Below are positions 9,986 to 63,594 of a stretch of DNA of 64,000 nt, piece after piece (the stretch's first letter is position 1; each line of letters starts with the position of its first letter). Location of the stretch: positions 21,824,001 through 21,888,000 of the forward strand of contig JAGIQG010000026.1 of the NCBI GenBank assembly GCA_024679065.1, written 5' to 3'. This DNA comes from Sphyrna mokarran (Eukaryota). Below the pieces are notes generated by a model. That model saw only the letters and a list, made by a program, of their open reading frames with translations, had not been told where the DNA came from and did no database searches. The translations under genes and the position numbers were made by a program.

Positions 9986-10288
<303 letters not shown>

Positions 10289-16330: not shown

Positions 16331-17522
16331 ATGTTTCATAATTGTCTACTCTTCATTTCACTTTGCTTATGAACAGCAAATAGTGACCAAATAGTCGTTT
16401 TAAAAATGCATAACAATATCTTTGATGTTGATGATCTAACTGTATCTGCTGATTTTTTTCATTTAGAGTGTGGTTTTGTATTATGATTGTTCTAGCTCTA
16501 TTCTCTCATTCGTGGTAATAACAACAGCTGTCACTTGGTCAGCCTTTATGTTTGCTAGTTATCTGCACACAAAATGATAAAATGTAAAGCATTTAATACC
16601 TATTCATTCATTTATCTATGATTCTTCAATACATAAAAAAAATCCTCAATAGATTTTCATTCTAATTAAGAAATGACAAGTTTTTTTTAAACCAATCTGC
16701 AAAATTAAAGAAACATAATTTTAGCAGACTGGTTTACAATGCAAGTTCAGTAACAATTTTATGCAACCACAAAAAGAACATATTCCAAAAAACCATGAGA
16801 TTTTATTTTAAAGTATTATTTTTGTATTGATATTATTTGCTGATTTACAATTTGATGTCACGAGTTAGTACTGAATGAGTACTAACTTAGAAATTTCTAT
16901 AATGTATTGGAAATTATTTACCTGGAACTGGTTGTGAGCTTGACAGACATAAATTAATTAATTTAACTAATTTGACAGGACACTTTACCAATCTGGAGGT
17001 GTTTTGACCCAATCTAATACTTTTGCTTCTTTCATACATTTAAGATGAAGGAAATCATAGTCTAGCCTCCACAATGATGCAAGTTGGAACCCAAGTCCAA
17101 ATAGTTGTACTGCTGCAAAGTAGACAAACGTATACTTGGTTTTCAGATGAAAGAACATCTGTGGTTTTCATTACATTAAGCTTTTGATTTATTATAATAA
17201 TCTGAGTTTTAAAGTGGCAGATTTGCAGCATCTTTGTGACCACACCAAAATATAAAAACAAGAAACTGCTGTTTCAACAGAGCTAGGAACTTTTAAAATC
17301 CATAGATCTTGAGAATGGAGGGCAGTATCACACAGGTGAAGTAACAAAGACAGACATTATTGCATGTTCCCATTTGCCCTCCTCAGCATCTTCAAATAGT
17401 AAAAAAAAAATCACCTTCAATGCCTCCAATCAGTAAAATTTCGCAACATTGAAAGGTAAAATTGTTGTGAAAAACCTGGCCATATCATGAGTTAATTTCT
17501 GAATTGATAGTGCAATACTTAC

Positions 17523-17649
17523 GCTGGGTACTCTGGGACTGAATTCTTGAAAGCTGGCAGGTCTTTTACATACTCATTATACAGCCACTTCACTTTGAAG
17601 TGTAGATTCATGTAATCTGCACTTTTGCAGAGTCTGTGCTTTTCATGTT
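17523..17649 (-). CDS. UNC13A: UNC13A exon 9: [41 protein letters not shown](A)
   Basis: tctttcag|AA ... GC|gtaagt; 127 nt. Confidence 0.93.
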
Positions 17650-19419
17650 CTGAAAGACAAAAGTGATAAGTTTTGCAGGAGAATCAAAAAGTCCAATTGT
17701 GTCTTAATTAATGGCTACCACGCAATTTTTCAACACTTTTTCTGCATTATTTGTATTTGTTTTGCCACAATACTTACAATTGTACACTATCTTTTGTAGG
17801 CAAATAGTTCAAAGTGTTTTAATGTTATTAATTATTTTTGAAATGAAATAGCTCTCATGTTGGCAAGAGTAAATTCTTGCTAACTGCATACATTTAGATG
17901 TAATTGCTAGTAAGTGACTGCTTCTGCGCCTGGAATATTATATTCAATTTATCATCTGAACTGTACTCTTGCTTTGTGTCATGTTCTTTATGACCTGCTT
18001 GTATTGTTTTTGGCTTCCATTCAAAACCCAATTAGGATATGAACAGTCTAAAAGTATTTCTTTGGACAAACTTTATAGGCGCTAGGGTTTCTGGTGATGG
18101 GACAGGGTGAGTTAATAGGGAATATGTCCCCGCTGATGCTGGTGTTCACACCAGGTGCACAGGCCACTCCTGTAACTACATGTTGTCCCCAGATTCTAAG
18201 TCCCATAGCCAGGGTGGAGTAAGTGTTTGAAGGCTTGTAATGGAGTTTGGAGGAAAGACGAGGAAAGGATAAGGAGGCGGGGGGAGGGGGTAGTGGTCCA
18301 GTTAGCAAGGTCCAGTAAAAAGGAAGCATCCAATGGGTGAAAACCTTGGTGGAAGGGGAGGGGAAGCTCATGTGAAAAGGGAGTTAATGAGAGGGCATCT
18401 CCCCCCTGAAGCCCAAATAAGGTGACCTGCCAGGTTGCCTCTTCATTCCAGGACTAACTTGCCATATGAGGGCTTAAATGGGTGAGGGCTCCTTGTAAAA
18501 ATGAAGGTAGCTAAGGGGCATGTGGGAGGGCAACTTTACATGCCACTCTGCCTGCAAACCTGGTGGTGGGGGACGCCTGTCTTCTTGACATTGAAAACAA
18601 CCAGCATAAGAACTGAGCAAAAACTTGCTTTGGATTCAACAGCTTTATTTTGGAAAAAACATTCAACACTGTCCAATTATCTTTACATAAGCAAAGCAGC
18701 ATCACTGAAAAGATACTGGGATAAAGCCTGCTATATAAATATTTCGGTAGTATTTTTTGCAACCTTGAGTTAAACTATGGAAAGTTCATATCTTAATCTC
18801 AGTTCCAAAGTAAATAGAAATCATAACTTTTTTTTAAAAACATTTTATGTTATTCTTGAAATTTCAGTTCAACACAAAACCTACCATATTACACTTCTTG
18901 AAGGTGAACGCCTGCTGAGTTAGTCACTAATAGATAATAGCCAATCAACCAATGCCATGAGAACCCAAGGAGGTTTTTATTCATATGCTGTATTATAGCA
19001 TAACGATCTTCAACTGCCACAGTGCAGCAGCAAGACTATCTTATTGCAGTTATATCTCAAACACCAAACAGTGATGTTGCATTTAAACAATGCAGTGTTT
19101 TTATGTTGCTGTACTTGTCCATGGTTTTTCTTGCTGGAGTGGGTAGTTTAAACAGATGATTATTTTTAGAAATGTTAAGCTCAGTTTTAGGCTTGAATTG
19201 ATCTGCAAGCAGTACAATAGGGAAAATTTGTAATTCCTTCAAAATGTCTGTGGAAAATGTCATTGCTTTCAAGAATGCTTAAAAGGAACTTTGCATCAAT
19301 TATAAAGGAATCAATTGTACTTTTCTTCAACAAATAAGAAATAATAATATGTGACCTGAATACCCTTGACCTGGAAGCAAGAAAGGTCGAGGACATTTCC
19401 TCATGTTTGTGCCTGAATC

Positions 19420-27852: not shown

Positions 27853-29382
27853 AAAGTGTTGGGGAGAGCTTGAAATACAGGTTGATAATATTGAGGAAAC
27901 TTTCAATGACATAAGTTTAAGAATCACTGTCCTATTTGGTTAAAGGATCTCTTTTCAAATGGATTAGTGATGACAGACAATTTCTCCATGTAAATTATAA
28001 TACTACATAATAAAACATACAAGTGTTGCATGTAAAGAGCATATTGATAAAAATATTAGAAATGACATTTATGACAGATATAAAGATCTTAATGCTGCTC
28101 CTAGGTGAGACATCCAACCCACTTTGCACTGGAAATGTGGAGCCTGCACTCTGCTCCAGCTACTAGCCCATATCAAACCCATCTTCAGCTGCCCACGTTG
28201 ACCGTCCATAAAGCAAGCCCTCCATACTGCTGGACGTGGCAGACACATCCTAGTGTATCTTCCTATCAAATCTCTGGACTATTGAAAGGATCCCCACTGT
28301 CCGGGATCAGGTGAGTGTTCCATTCAGTTAGGACTCTGGAAGAAAAGCAGTAGAAACTACTTCACAATTTGAGGGAGTGGAATTGAAGGCGTAACTTTGT
28401 AGGTTATTCAGTCCTGCTCCCTCTCCCACATTGGTGACTATTTTATCACCAAACCCATAACACAGAAATTAGGTAATGGGAAGAGAAACACCAGATGTAG
28501 AATGCAGTAGTTCATTGGGAGAAGGCAACCCCCTCCACCCCCCAGTTCCACTCCACCACCAGCTCACCTCATCCCACTCTCTTTTCCCTCCTCATGACAT
28601 TAAATAAGTTATTATTAGTACACCACTCTGTAACATTATCTGGTATTGGCTTTGGCTTAATGAGTGCACACTCACTTCTGAATTAGAAGCTTGTGTTTGT
28701 AAGTTTCACTCTAGCAACATGATCTAAAATTCCATTTCGTGAGGTTGTGAAAGGCACTATAAAGTGTGTGTGTGTACATGTGCGTCTGCATCTGTGGGAG
28801 AGTTGGTGCAGACTTGATGTAACAAATGGCTTCTTTCTGCATTATAAGGATTCTGTGATTCAGGGTCTGTCCTCAATTTTAGAACCACTGATCTAGGGAC
28901 GCTATATCCATCCTTTTGGAGAAAGCCTAGATATGTCTATCACAATTAGAATGCAAGATTGAATTACTTTCAAGTCAGGCAGGATAATGATTTAACCATT
29001 CTACTTTGTATTTCTAGAAGCATTTAATAAAAATAGTAGGGATGGCCATAATGACCATAAATCATAGTGATGACCGTAACTCTAGTATAGCTACCGTTGA
29101 TAATTGGGTAAAGATTGAGTTTAATGAGGGGTGACCAGCTCCCAGAGATCAGGTTGAACTGGCTAGAAACTTTCAAAATAAAAGAAGTGGATCTGCATGG
29201 AGTCATCACAAAATACCAGATGTATTCGAGGACGAACTGGGGAAAAATCAAAGGATTGTAAGCAAAAATCCAAGATCCAGAGCCACACCAAAATTCTTAC
29301 AGAACAAGACCTGTGCCCTATACACAGTAAGAATTTAGCAACACCAATTATTAATCCAACCGATTTATTTGATAGTAAAAAA

Positions 29383-29416
29383 GCGAGCTTTCAACACTCC
29401 CGTGTCTTCATCAGGC
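29383..29416 (-). ncRNA. Minimal type I hammerhead-ribozyme-like motif in PLE 3' end
   Basis: Minus strand reads GC-CUGAUGA-A-GACAC-GGGA-GUGUU-GAAA-GCUC-GC: both core boxes, helix II hairpin, palindromic AGCU in place of helix III, only 2-bp helix I. Confidence 0.65.
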
Positions 29417-29631
29417 AAGTGCAGTGTTCTGGTCTGCAATAGCACACATCAGCACAGACAGTCAGAGATTGCTGATTAGAATGCGAATCCTTACATCTAA
29501 CCTGCTATTCAAGTGTTAAAGTGGCTAACAATGTGTGTGAAGGGGATCCTGAGCATTGTTAGAGAATTGTGTATTTTCTCCAGACAGCACAGTAAGTGAG
29601 GTTTTTTGCTAACCCAGGCAAGTTACGGGGG

Positions 29632-30471
29632 TTACAGATAGTGTGTCATGAAGCCAAGATCCCTGTTAAGACCGTCCTCATGTGTGCGGAGCTTGGCTAT
29701 CAGTCTCTGTTCAGCGACTCTGCGCTGTCGTGTATCACGAAAGCCCCCTTGAAGAACATTTACCCGCAGGTCGGAGGCCGAATGCCCATGACTGCTGAAG
29801 TGTTCGCCCACAGGAAGGGAACTGTTTTGCCTGGTGATTGCTGAGCGATGCTCATTCATCCGCTGTCGTAGTGTCTGCATGGTCTCCCCAATATACCATG
29901 CTTCGGGACATCCTTTCTTGCAACGTATTAGGTAGACAACGTTGGCCGAGTTGCAAGAGTATGTACCGTGCACCTGGTGAATGGTATCCTCACGTTCGAT
30001 GATGTCGTCCATGTCTATGATCCGGCATGTCTTGCAGAGGTTGCTGTGGCAGGGTTGTGTGGTATTGTGGTCACTGTTCTCCTGAAGGTTGGGTAGTTTG
30101 CTGCGAACAATGATCTGTTTGAGGTTGTGCGGTTGTCTGAAAGCAAGAAGTGGGGGGGTGGGGATGGCCCTAGCGAGATGTTCATCGTCATCAATGATAT
30201 GTTGAAGACTCCGGAGAAGATGTCGTAGCTTCTCCGCTCCGGGGAAGTACTGGACAACAAAGGGTACTCTGTCCACCGTGTCCCGTGTTCGTCTTCTGAG
30301 GAGATCAGTGCGGTTTATCGTTGTGGCACGTTGGAACTGTCGATCGATGAGTCGAGCGCCATATCCTGTTCTCACGAGTGCATCCTTCAGTGTCTGGAGG
30401 TGTCTGTCACGATCCTCCTCATCTGAGCAAATTCTGTGTATACGGAGGGCTTGTCCATAGGGAATGGCTTC
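29632..30471 (-). CDS. PLE ORF C-terminal fragment: RT thumb, Cys-rich linker, GIY-YIG endonuclease (5'-truncated, no authentic start)
   Basis: ~280 uninterrupted codons; VVYLIRC...WYIGET...LRQRMNEH...PVGEHF...EQRLIAKLRTHEDGLN. The listed ORF start (30507) lies in the mirrored arm. Confidence 0.8.
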   Translation of the reverse strand, partial: EAIPYGQALRIHRICSDEEDRDRHLQTLKDALVRTGYGARLIDRQFQRATTINRTDLLRRRTRDTVDRVPFVVQYFPGAEKLRHLLRSLQHIIDDDEHLARAIPTPPLLAFRQPHNLKQIIVRSKLPNLQENSDHNTTQPCHSNLCKTCRIIDMDDIIEREDTIHQVHGTYSCNSANVVYLIRCKKGCPEAWYIGETMQTLRQRMNEHRSAITRQNSSLPVGEHFSSHGHSASDLRVNVLQGGFRDTRQRRVAEQRLIAKLRTHEDGLNRDLGFMTHYL

Positions 30472-30718
30472 GAAGCCACTCCCTATGGACAAGCCCTCCG
30501 TATACACAGAATTTGCTCAGATGAGGAGGATCGTGACAGACACCTCCAGACACTGAAGGATGCACTCGTGAGAACAGGATATGGTGCTCAACTCATCAAT
30601 CGACAGTTCCAACGTGCCACAACGATAAACCGCACTGATCTCCTCAGAAGACGAACACGGGACACGGTGGACAGAGTACCCTTTGTTGTCCAGTACTTTC
30701 CCGGAGCGGAGAAGCTAC
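30225..30718. repeat. Spacerless palindrome, 2 x 247 bp, centre TTC|GAA at 30471/30472
   Basis: Arm-by-arm comparison gives 5 mismatches, all transitions. Confidence 0.95.
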
Positions 30719-30738
30719 ATCATGACCCCTATACACAG

Positions 30739-31046
30739 GACAGTGATAGCCTTTTTGCTAGGATGGAGAAAGCTAGCACGAGGGGACACAGCTTTAAATT
30801 AAGGGGTGATAGTTATAGGACGGATATCAGAGGTAGGTTCTTTACCCAAAGGGTGGTTCGGGAGTGGAATGCCCTGCCTGCGGCAGTTGTAGATGCGCCA
30901 AATTTGGTGGCGTTTAAGAGGTTAGTTGATAAGTTTATGGAAGAGAAGGGAATGGTTTAGTTTGGAGGGTCATTGCTTTTTATAATGGTCGGCGCAACAT
31001 CGAAGGCCAAAGGGCCTGTTCTGCGCTGTAATGTTCTATGTTCTAT
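30739..31046 (+). mobile_element. Young CR1 LINE 3' fragment
   Basis: Encodes TRGHSFKLRGDSYRTDIRGRFFTQRVVREWNALP; tail aagggcctgttctgcgctgtaatgttctatgttctat. Confidence 0.85.
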
Positions 31047-32421
31047 ACATGAGCAGTGATTGCAGATATAGAGCTAAAATGAAGGAGATTTGGATATTAT
31101 CAGGCTTGTACAGTTTGCTGACTGGATAGCACACATTGTGTCAGTAGTTAAACCAAACAAGACTGTGTTTGAGGTGGACAACAAGTTGAAAGAGAATTAG
31201 GATTAGATGACATATCAAAATATTATGTCACTATAAATACTCTTAAGGGATTATATCAATATACATGACTACTGTTTAGGGTTTTGTTGGCTTATGCCAT
31301 CTTTCAGTGAGCTATGGAGAGTTGTCATTTGCCTGGATGATATTTTAATAGTATAATCCACCAAAGAGGAACTGACCCCTGGAATATCTCAAAACACAGA
31401 TACTTCCTTGGGATGGTCAGCTATTATTGGTTGTTCCTCCCAATATATATCCACACTACTAGAATCATTGCATATAAAGGAGTGCCAGAGATGATATTGG
31501 AAAATACCACAAAATAAAAGGCTTTCAACAAAGTTAAGCAGGCACTTCAGTCAACATGCTTATTAGTCCCTTTCAACCCATCTAAGCAGATAGTACTTAC
31601 TTGCAATGCATAACTGTATGGGCTTGAGCTGTGTTATCCCACATAATGGATAATGGGTCCGAGAGACCCAATTGGTATATTTCAAGAACTGATCAGATAA
31701 GGAAAGTGAATATTCCCAGACACAAAAAGAAAGCCTAGCTATTACCTTCAGCAGTAAGGAATTTCATCAATACATATATGTGAGATATTTTACGATCATC
31801 ACAGACACAAGGCCACTTTAAGATTTTTCAAGGAAGACAAAGCCATTCCACCAATTGCTTCTTCTAGAATACAACAATGGGCACTATTCTTGTTGGTTTA
31901 CGAATATACCATTGAACATTGGCTGAGAGAGTCCCTGGCCAATCAGATGTCTCACATCATCTTCCATTACCAGAAAGCACACTACCCCTTCTAATATTGG
32001 AAGGGATTGTAATGTCTTTCAATTTTCTGGATTCCTTACCTGTAACAACAGGACAGATTAAGTACTGGACTAGTGAAGATTAAACATATGATAATGTATG
32101 GGTGGCGGAATGTGTTTAATAGGGAATTAAGCTTTATTGGTTCAGGAAACACGAGCTTAGTTGTGAGGATGACGTAATCTTTTGGAGAACGATATTGGTC
32201 TTCCTTAGACCTGGAAGAGTTACATAGTACCCATCCAGGCATGTCGAAGATGAAAATGCTAGCAAGAAGCTATGTTCGGTGGCCTGGTATCAATGCTGAT
32301 ATAGAAAGGGTTATGAAACAATGTGACCAGTGCCAATTTCAGCAGAAGTTATCTACTACAGTCCCCTTACACCTTTGGGAATGGCCAGGTCAGAGTTCAT
32401 GTAGGTTATGTCTGCCCATTT

Positions 32422-38810: not shown

Positions 38811-39041
<231 letters not shown>

Positions 39042-40929
39042 TTAGTATCACCTACTTCCATAGGAATTTATTGCTACAAGAAACAGTCATCACTTTTACT
39101 TACGATTAATGGGCCTAGCGTGGTTAAACACCGATGAATATAAAAAAGAAAAAGCAGATATTTTCATTTCATTACTCTTCAATGTTCTTTTTTTCCTCTG
39201 AAGGAAGTACTATCTTGTGCTGGAGTACAGTTTGTGTTGACCACATTTTGGTACCTCAGACAACCCGCAGAACCTCAGCAGAACATAAGGGAAGTCCGTT
39301 TGCAAGTTATTCCAAACATGGATGAAATTATTTGGGGTATTGGTGTTAATCTCTGTGATTGCTGACTTAAAATACAGAGGCAAGAATAGCAAGAGAGGCA
39401 TGTTTAAATGCCTACAATTGCCTATAAAGCTTAAGCTCTTTACCATAGAACCACAATGCAGAAAATAATTTTCCAGCTCATTGGGTCTGCACCAACTCCA
39501 TTTTATTTACGAGGGGAAAACTTGTGAAAGTCAGAGGTCAGTTTCAGGGCACAGGATCCTCACATTTGCAAGATTGTGTTTTTAATAAAGATGAGAAGAG
39601 GGTTACTGACCAACTCTAGATGGAAATGTTCTTGGAAATTTGATGACATAATGTTCTGATCATGTGACCTATGATTACGAGCAAATATCTATCCCATTTT
39701 CTATGAAATGACAACTTTTCTCTGTTGCAATAATCACAGACATGGAAGACTCCACAGTGTACCAGATATAGAATCTGCCTCCTCCCTTTCCCCTCATTTT
39801 TTTTTTCCCCCCATGAGAATCCTTAATTCCACACTTTCCCACTTGTGGAAACAATTATTCACTGCTTACCCACAACAATGTCCCAAGGTTCACTTAATTC
39901 TTTGAACTGGCTGCTCCTTTCTCAATGCCACTCGCACTTGTCATCGTGTTGCTGCTGCTCCCATTTCTGTGTAAAATACTGGATCCCATAGTCACCCTAT
40001 TCCCCATCATCTTCCTGTCCAGATCTCTTACTACCCATCTCTCCCATTTATTCCCCTCTCTCTATTCTCAGCCTCTCTCTCCAACTTAGCCACTAACAAG
40101 GACACCCACACAGATTTCAGAGACCTCCCACAACCAGTCGTGATTCTATGAAGATTCTATAAAGCTCTGAGCAATAGTCAGCGATGAGCACTGTGGGAAA
40201 GGCTTTGAAATTAATCTGTTAAAAATTATACAATTTAATCACCTTCTGACTCCCAATTCCAAGATAACAATAATTAGTTGCTGCACTCCACATAAAAGTG
40301 TTTGTTCATGTGGGCTTGGAAGTTTAATGATCTAACCAATTTAGGGAAAGTAAGGTGTCAACTATATAATTGCAGAATGCATTGGGCAGTTCTCTTCATT
40401 GCATGGAAAAGATTCAAGAACTTGCAATAAATGTCAATAAGGTTCTACTCAGCCCTCAAGATTGCCAATCTTGTCTATAAATGCATTTACAGACAAGGTT
40501 GGCAAAGTAAATTTGTAGGCCTAATAAAAGCTCACATGAAATGCAATTGTATTTTTCATGCAGCAGTTATCAAGTCATCATCTCATGACATCTCACAACC
40601 TGTAGACATGTAAGATTTTGATAATACTAATTTTTAGGGTTGTATATTGGCCTGAAGTAATAGCTATGGATCATTTTTAACCATTTTTAAAATAATTCAG
40701 GTTGAATTTCTGTTAGTTGGGACATCTTACAAATGGCATCCGTTGCGCGTGAGAAACTACACTTAATGGATTTATGACTAAGTTACCTGAGACTGGCTCC
40801 AGCAGTTGTACATTGCTTTAATAATATCGTGGGCAATTAATAGTCTTATTATCAATTTTGAAGAAATGGCTGAGTTAAAATGATGCTATCTTGGAACAAA
40901 ACCCATGTATTGGTTTAAGTTTTTAAAAA

Positions 40930-61832: not shown

Positions 61833-62015
61833 AAGTCCAATAGATTTATTTGGAATCACGAGCTTTTGGAGCACTGTTCCTTTATCAGGTGAGTGGATGA
61901 AAGAGCAGCGCTCTGAAAACTCGTGATTCCAAATAAACTTGTTGGACTTTAACCTGGTGTTGCGAGATTTCTAACTATGCCCACCCCAGTACAATGTAGG
62001 CATTTCCACTCATCA
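61833..62015. mobile_element. Fold-back pair of Penelope pLTR ends with decayed hammerhead motifs
   Basis: Arms 61833-61886 / 61896-61949; TSD-like tcaaaaga at 61820-61827 and 62013-62020; homologous to 29322-29420. Confidence 0.8.
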
Positions 62016-63431: not shown

Positions 63432-63594
63432 AGTAAGAAGTCTTACAAGACCAGGTTTATTTGGTAGCAAATACCACTAAGTGCTTCAAAAGCTAGTGGC
63501 ATTTGCTACCAAATAAACCTGTTGGATTTTAACCCAGTGTTGTAAGACTTCTTATTGTGTTTACCCCAGTCCAAACTCTGGCATCTCCACATCA
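63432..63594. mobile_element. Fold-back pair of Penelope pLTR ends
   Basis: Inner stem 63452-63479 / 63494-63521 (27/28), outer stem 63432-63448 / 63540-63556; TSD cattat(g/a)agctag at 63421-63433 and 63593-63605. Confidence 0.8.

Follow-up and report, generated by a model that had tools for sequence, protein, structure and literature searches.

An inverted and truncated copy lying next to the element is called frequent among Penelope-like elements (PLEs), and the way in which PLEs form tandem and inverted structures is stated to be open, in PMC8557442. In the Pen2 and Pen3 elements of Adineta vaga inverted pLTRs are found with a tail and a target duplication, and palindromes at the junctions have been read as products of self-priming (PMC3846280). 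Both the mirror-image layout and its self-priming reading are already published, and the layout is routine for the family described here, whose host resembles a shark in its repeat motifs.

In twin priming of the L1 element the second target end primes a cDNA of its own, leading to a 5′ inversion. The inverted piece is an upstream and largely non-overlapping part of the same RNA. L1 twin priming is discussed in 10.1101/2024.12.14.628481. Purified protein of the Poseidon element of Anolis (PAc) nicks and extends both strands, two RNA start sites bound the tail on either side, and a dimer has been predicted (PMC11167929). For the R2 protein, snap-back of the cDNA before 5′ joining is a named class of junction (PMC11371274). 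A search by title and abstract gave no paper on topic that joined Penelope with twin priming, most subscription journals, including the PLE papers of 2005-2006, lying outside its coverage; a term search of the available text of 10.64898/2026.07.22.740005 gave nothing relevant.

A truncated element and its mirror image

We have analyzed a 64-kb stretch of DNA (the window) that is free of N and contains a PLE insertion with a palindrome at its center. The features of the insertion are collected in Table 1. In the assembly the palindrome is present as the original prediction had described it, with two arms of 247 bp each that meet with 0 nt between them and differ at five positions, all of them transitions. 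These are T>C at 30479, C>T at 30585, G>A at 30590 and 30598, and C>T at 30699. Three of the five lie at CpG sites, and the five show no strand coordination. The center junction is found once in the assembly. The arms are predicted to fold into a hairpin of 247 pairs at -520.8 kcal/mol. Elsewhere in the window there are further self-inverted stretches at 61833-61949, 63452-63521 and 40462-40505, which are 77-91% complementary.

At all five differences the derived state is that of the inverted arm; the 40 genomic matches scored, out of 542 candidates, are all identical to the left arm. From every one of the 28 youngest family copies the forward arm differs at 2 of 1144 nt, in agreement with the young age that had been proposed for the element, and at five diagnostic sites young alleles are common to both arms. 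The inverted arm is therefore changed at 5 of 247 nt compared with 2 of 1144 in the forward arm (Fisher p = 0.003, the test having been picked post hoc). What is rare at this locus is the zero offset, the internal origin of the inverted arm and the placing of all five differences upon it. That the inverted sequence is internal to the ORF was also part of the original prediction, and is supported.

Table 1. Coordinates of features in and around the PLE insertion, numbered within the window
Feature	Position	Strand	Description
Left target-site duplication	29316..29327	+	CCCTATACACAG
3′ pLTR region, forward arm	29328..29631	-	finishes at the short (tail-less) end of the family
Minimal-hammerhead-like core boxes CTGATGA ... 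GAAA, short stem between	29389..29414	-	motif match only
5′-truncated ORF	29632..30471	-	279 codons: C-terminal part past the RT core, CX4CxxC linker, GIY-YIG
Left arm of palindrome	30225..30471	-	ORF sequence; the 40 genomic matches scored all show 100% identity to it
Inverted arm	30472..30718	+	247 nt, ORF-internal, young-subfamily alleles, all 5 derived transitions
PLE tail terminus	30715..30726	+	overlaps end of inverted arm by 3-4 nt of microhomology
Right target-site duplication	30727..30738	+	CCCTATACACAG
LINE 3′ fragment	30738..31046	+	97-98% to nearest copies; 7-nt target repeat 31043-31049

The 12-bp repeat CCCTATACACAG flanks the insert on both sides, bearing out the claim of a single integration. 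The last 3 nt of its left copy also match the short end of the element, so the duplication may be taken as 12 bp, or as 9 bp plus 3 nt of microhomology. On the right, the inverted arm closes with the last 11-12 bases of the element tail; the forward arm is tail-less. Between the inverted arm and the tail end ~930 nt are missing. Past the microhomology, 8 nt agree with the tail up to its very end, and all 8 are reached by 5 of 43 tailed ends. The pattern at the tail junction has eight matches in the genome, and the junction to the stub is unique to this insert. We rejected a mobile deleted derivative as the source, given that the center junction occurs only here and the seven other matches to the tail junction run into ordinary ORF sequence. 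Chance decay of older ORF sequence is an unlikely source of the tail terminus; 5 of the 8 nt could be met in this way, but two changes from the young allele and three further matching bases would be needed. Among the sampled loci there was no other tail stub; one candidate (L056) was rejected as it continues into the ORF start.

The element has the character of an EN+ PLE, with a single ORF containing RT together with a GIY-YIG domain at its C-terminal end, and a tandem or inverted pLTR arrangement with target duplication. Its minus-strand frame, predicted to start at 30471 with about 280 codons, runs from 30471 to 29635 with 279 open codons and matches GIY-YIG (PF01541, E = 5.6e-5, above the curated cut-off). 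In a near-full-length member of the family (L116, 785 aa) RVT_1 is matched with E = 8e-10 and GIY-YIG with E = 4e-4, which falls slightly short of the curated cut-off. The DKG and CCHH motifs named for EN+ PLEs (PMC8557442) can be read by eye, the former as KPADKGG and the latter as C..C with two later histidines around GIY-YIG. The linker that joins RT to EN is CHSNLCKTC. According to PMC8557442 a CX2-5CxxC linker of this kind is found in Neptune and Nematis but is missing from Penelope/Poseidon, and its presence speaks against the latter clade. The element is thus classed by its linker sequence as a PLE of the Neptune/Nematis type, an assignment that does not tell these two apart. Minimal hammerheads occur in pLTRs (PMC4209133). 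The hammerhead-like core of the present pLTR has the core boxes, with no match in Rfam and a fold no better than those of shuffled sequences (z = +1.14). Within the intron, 29364-29414 of the minus strand presents this core together with AATAAA in the sense of the host gene.

From its coding sequence the host is a UNC13A-like gene, as predicted, and the insert sits in one of its introns. To either side of the insert there are minus-strand exons of the MUN domain (17519-17665 and 38850-38936), and the exon at 10019-10189 resembles solved Munc13-1/UNC13A chains (E = 1e-27). That exon has VFSQ and VGHY like the Munc13-1 chain; two paralogous exons have VFTQ, and VAHY or LAHF, and fit the chain less well. 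The forward arm reads in the sense of the host gene. The modeled hairpin would form in the pre-mRNA. The ~247 bp of dsRNA that had been foreseen is physically right as a prediction, but it is not special because long inverted arms are common in the family (33 of 79 loci; see below). The insertion is a young, dead, 5′-truncated copy and inert debris.

The neighboring LINE fragment, which we take to be CR1-like, is presumably nested in a decayed pol remnant resembling that of an LTR retrotransposon; Pfam gave no name for either flanking remnant. The right target duplication of the PLE straddles the 5′ junction of the LINE fragment. Since the latter is 97-98% identical to its nearest copies, a later chance insertion of the PLE is likelier than a joint event, and by this comparison the LINE fragment is likely older than the forward arm.

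Head-to-head insertions in the family

The family is very abundant and young; exact copies of a 30-mer from the end of its ORF number 7,781 in the genome. With thousands of near-identical copies, fold-back can be separated from twin priming by computation alone, from junction offsets, the placement of the tail and the haplotypes of the arms. The first 100 matches listed, all on one contig, fall into 81 clusters, of which we surveyed 80. Removal of a duplicate (L087, equal to L086) gave 79 loci, and in the table of target duplications L042 and L064 yielded no chain. L086 and L087 contain the same head-to-head insertion twice, ~9 kb apart, as a local or an assembly duplicate.

Head-to-head arms are present in 33 of the 79 sampled loci, with 35 junctions, and in 21 of the 33 both arms extend to the pLTR end. 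The junctions comprise 23 with inserted sequence, ten with microhomology and two that are blunt. Fold-backs had been expected at the truncation points of other copies, and this expectation fails in part: in the 35 junctions the offset between the 5′ ends of the arms has a minimum of 15 nt and a median of 378 nt, and none is spacerless. Small offsets are in excess: nine are ≤100 nt, where shuffled pairings give 2.9 (p = 0.001), and five are ≤40 nt where 1.7 are expected (p = 0.017, L091 being counted twice). A zero offset is expected by shuffled pairing 0.06 times in 35. Because small offsets exceed those of shuffled pairings, a fold-back class likely exists within the family. Short-loop palindromes are found in L037 (loop of 26 nt), L063 (40 nt) and L091. 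The last (L091:5530-6830) is a palindrome of 1.26 kb with an 11-nt loop, a 12-bp duplication and one tailed end. The insert at its junction is itself mirrored, and of all the sampled loci L091 looks most clearly like a fold-back. Short internal inverted pieces occur at L081 and L058.

Copies of the family stop at the short end or ~40 nt further on, with a tail. Exactly one outer end is tailed in 19 of the 21 scoreable head-to-head pairs of the unbiased sample, and in none are both tailed; single copies divide into 18 tailed and 22 short. The present locus conforms to this rule, with the tail terminus alone. Target duplications of 11-14 nt were found for 34 of the 86 inserts tabulated.

Several further features of the sampled loci were observed. 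5′ truncations are bunched just ahead of the second half of the GIY-YIG core, 13 of 43 ends falling within 40 nt (reference 2152-2191, L095-based) in L050, L074, L082, L083, L089, L091, L099, L106 and others (scan p = 0.0009, the uniform null taking no account of the rise of truncations toward the 3′ end). The long copies L043, L051, L078, L095 and L111 have a common 5′ boundary that lies ~24 nt upstream of the reference used for mapping and may correspond to an RNA 5′ end or a splice site. At the 5′ junctions of L081 (4975-5060) and L110 the target DNA has been copied back on itself into a short inverted repeat, much as happens when end-joining leaves templated inserts. In the tandem junction of L078 the tail terminus leads into ATG-started sequence, and the tail appears to stop at the ORF start.

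Formation of the palindrome

The original prediction was that the cDNA end folded back and primed itself. This stands in part, in that such fold-back likely occurs in the family, as judged from the excess of offsets ≤100 nt and from L091, but it is not the whole story. In a pure snap-back the inverted piece would be wholly templated by the first cDNA, but its last 8 nt are tail. Fold-back alone is insufficient because the tail-less forward arm could not template the tail terminus, and a second priming or a later deletion is needed to supply it. Nor is there the ready-made stem and loop that pure snap-back calls for. The family sequence has no natural inverted repeat or stem at the fold point, where upstream sequence reads ..GTTAAA/GAAG, and in predicted folds of the cDNA end the pairing falls elsewhere. 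There is no pile-up of family 5′ ends that would make the base at the fold point a truncation hot spot.

Our favored account, to which we give an even chance, is a single integration in which both staggered-cut ends were likely primed and the gap-free center likely came from the longer cDNA turning back. Its observed basis is the 12-bp duplication, the short left end of the element, the tail terminus at its right and the start of both arms at one base; we infer the order of steps, the fold-back and the origin of each strand. Priming of both target ends is likely at this insert. The left 3′-OH would prime at the short start site and 1,144 nt would be copied before a stall. The cDNA end would then fold back and self-copy at least 247 nt, by means of 2-3 untemplated bases or a U-turn of the polymerase, one of which is required because the fold point is without a natural hairpin. 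The right 3′-OH would prime at the tail start and make only ~8-12 nt, all tail. Since the first cDNA lacks tail, the right cDNA would be without long homology for pairing, and the two strands would be united by the 3-4 nt that ORF and tail end have in common. The product would be a dead, 5′-truncated copy.

The favored account is supported by the tail rule, the match of the tail to its limit, the excess of small offsets, the 11-14 nt duplications and the short-loop palindromes of the family, and also by the young alleles in both arms, the inverted pieces of L081 and L058, and the findings of PMC11167929 and PMC11371274. The in vitro support comes from the Poseidon element, which belongs to a different clade. 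The fold-back is weakened by the ages of the arms, since a self-copy should age like its template and yet 5 of 247 nt are changed compared with 2 of 1144. The lack of a natural stem, of spacerless junctions among the other 35 and of a second tail stub in the sample weakens the account further, and typical pairs of the family show little resemblance to fold-back copies.

The zero spacer could also be explained without a hairpin, if both target ends copied an RNA with a break at one and the same base, the cDNA primed at the tail jumped from tail to ORF through the 3-4 nt match, and the two cDNAs were extended to the 5′ end of the RNA and joined bluntly. Twin priming is apparently the rule in the family, and blunt joints exist (2 of 35). 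However, a template jump of 930 nt and a shared RNA end are needed, and there is neither a pile-up of 5′ ends at the base nor a second center junction in the assembly. Moreover testable arms come mostly from different templates, in which case the zero offset is expected just 0.06 times in 35. We regard this as unlikely.

To much the same degree we doubt a later deletion, in which a full 2.3-kb spacerless palindrome with a tailed arm lost ~930 bp by microhomology-mediated repair. The 21 of 33 head-to-head loci with both arms reaching the pLTR end would provide the precursor, the tail junction bears microhomology of the deletion type, and repair beside a break might explain the extra changes of the short arm. 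Against this, the five changes are not strand-coordinated and the origin of the zero spacer is left unexplained. Long palindromes tend to lose their center, but here it is intact.

Spacerless mirrors are a known artefact of long reads. A fold-back chimeric read that made the mirror, or polishing that overwrote private variants of the forward arm, is quite improbable; mosaic haplotypes do exist among young copies, and none of the contig matches listed (90% likeness) crosses the center, in a listing so swamped by other copies as to be uninformative on that point, but a chimera would not close with a tail terminus followed by a matching target duplication, and the differences are all transitions, three of them at CpG.

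Templates of the two arms and comparison with described systems

In the nine youngest pairs (two from the unbiased sample and seven picked separately) 17 of 65 segregating non-CpG sites distinguish one arm from the other, and such differences are present in seven of the nine. Over those sites no differences are expected if one arm was copied from the other, and 25 if the arms were random young copies. The sequences thus suggest two separate templates for each head-to-head insertion, although the arms might alternatively derive from different units of one tandem transcript, or differ through later gene conversion or as mosaics of polishing. The palindrome arm at the present locus spans one common variable site, and is therefore without power in this comparison. 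A block made up of three of the five changes of the inverted arm is seen 17 times in the genome, but a control triple taken from L059 is seen 15 times, and the block was rejected as evidence of a different template for the inverted arm. The block also sits on both arms of one other pair, and young alleles were found in none of the 11 loci examined from the 20 matches that carry the first variant.

We tentatively propose, as possible though not the likelier outcome, a dimer with two RNA templates, in which one protomer would prime at the tail start and the other at the short start on the opposite strand. The present locus would be the limiting case, the tail-primed cDNA having aborted at ~12 nt and fold-back having closed the gap. 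Two-template arms, if true, would lend the dimer of PMC11167929, there a prediction, support from genome sequence, and would argue against self-priming as the main route.

Like Pen2 and Pen3 of Adineta vaga (PMC3846280; scheme in PMC8557442), the present locus has a 5′-truncated copy with an adjoining inverted copy, a tail at one end and a target duplication. It is unlike them in having an inverted arm made of ORF-internal sequence plus no more than the final 11-12 nt of tail, in its zero offset, and in the length of the mirror, 247 bp compared with 18-38 bp (PMC3846280). The start sites of PAc match the short-end and tail-end rule of the present family, but PAc is from another clade, and inverted insertions and the template of each strand are not treated in the main text of PMC11167929. 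With R2 the favored account shares a cDNA 3′ end that primes on itself before joining, whereas the R2 insertions are engineered, at a fixed site and without a tail, and priming at internal positions of the cDNA leaves a loop (PMC11371274). As in L1 twin priming, the second target end would prime its own cDNA to give a 5′ inversion; unlike L1, both arms at this locus cover the same sequence.
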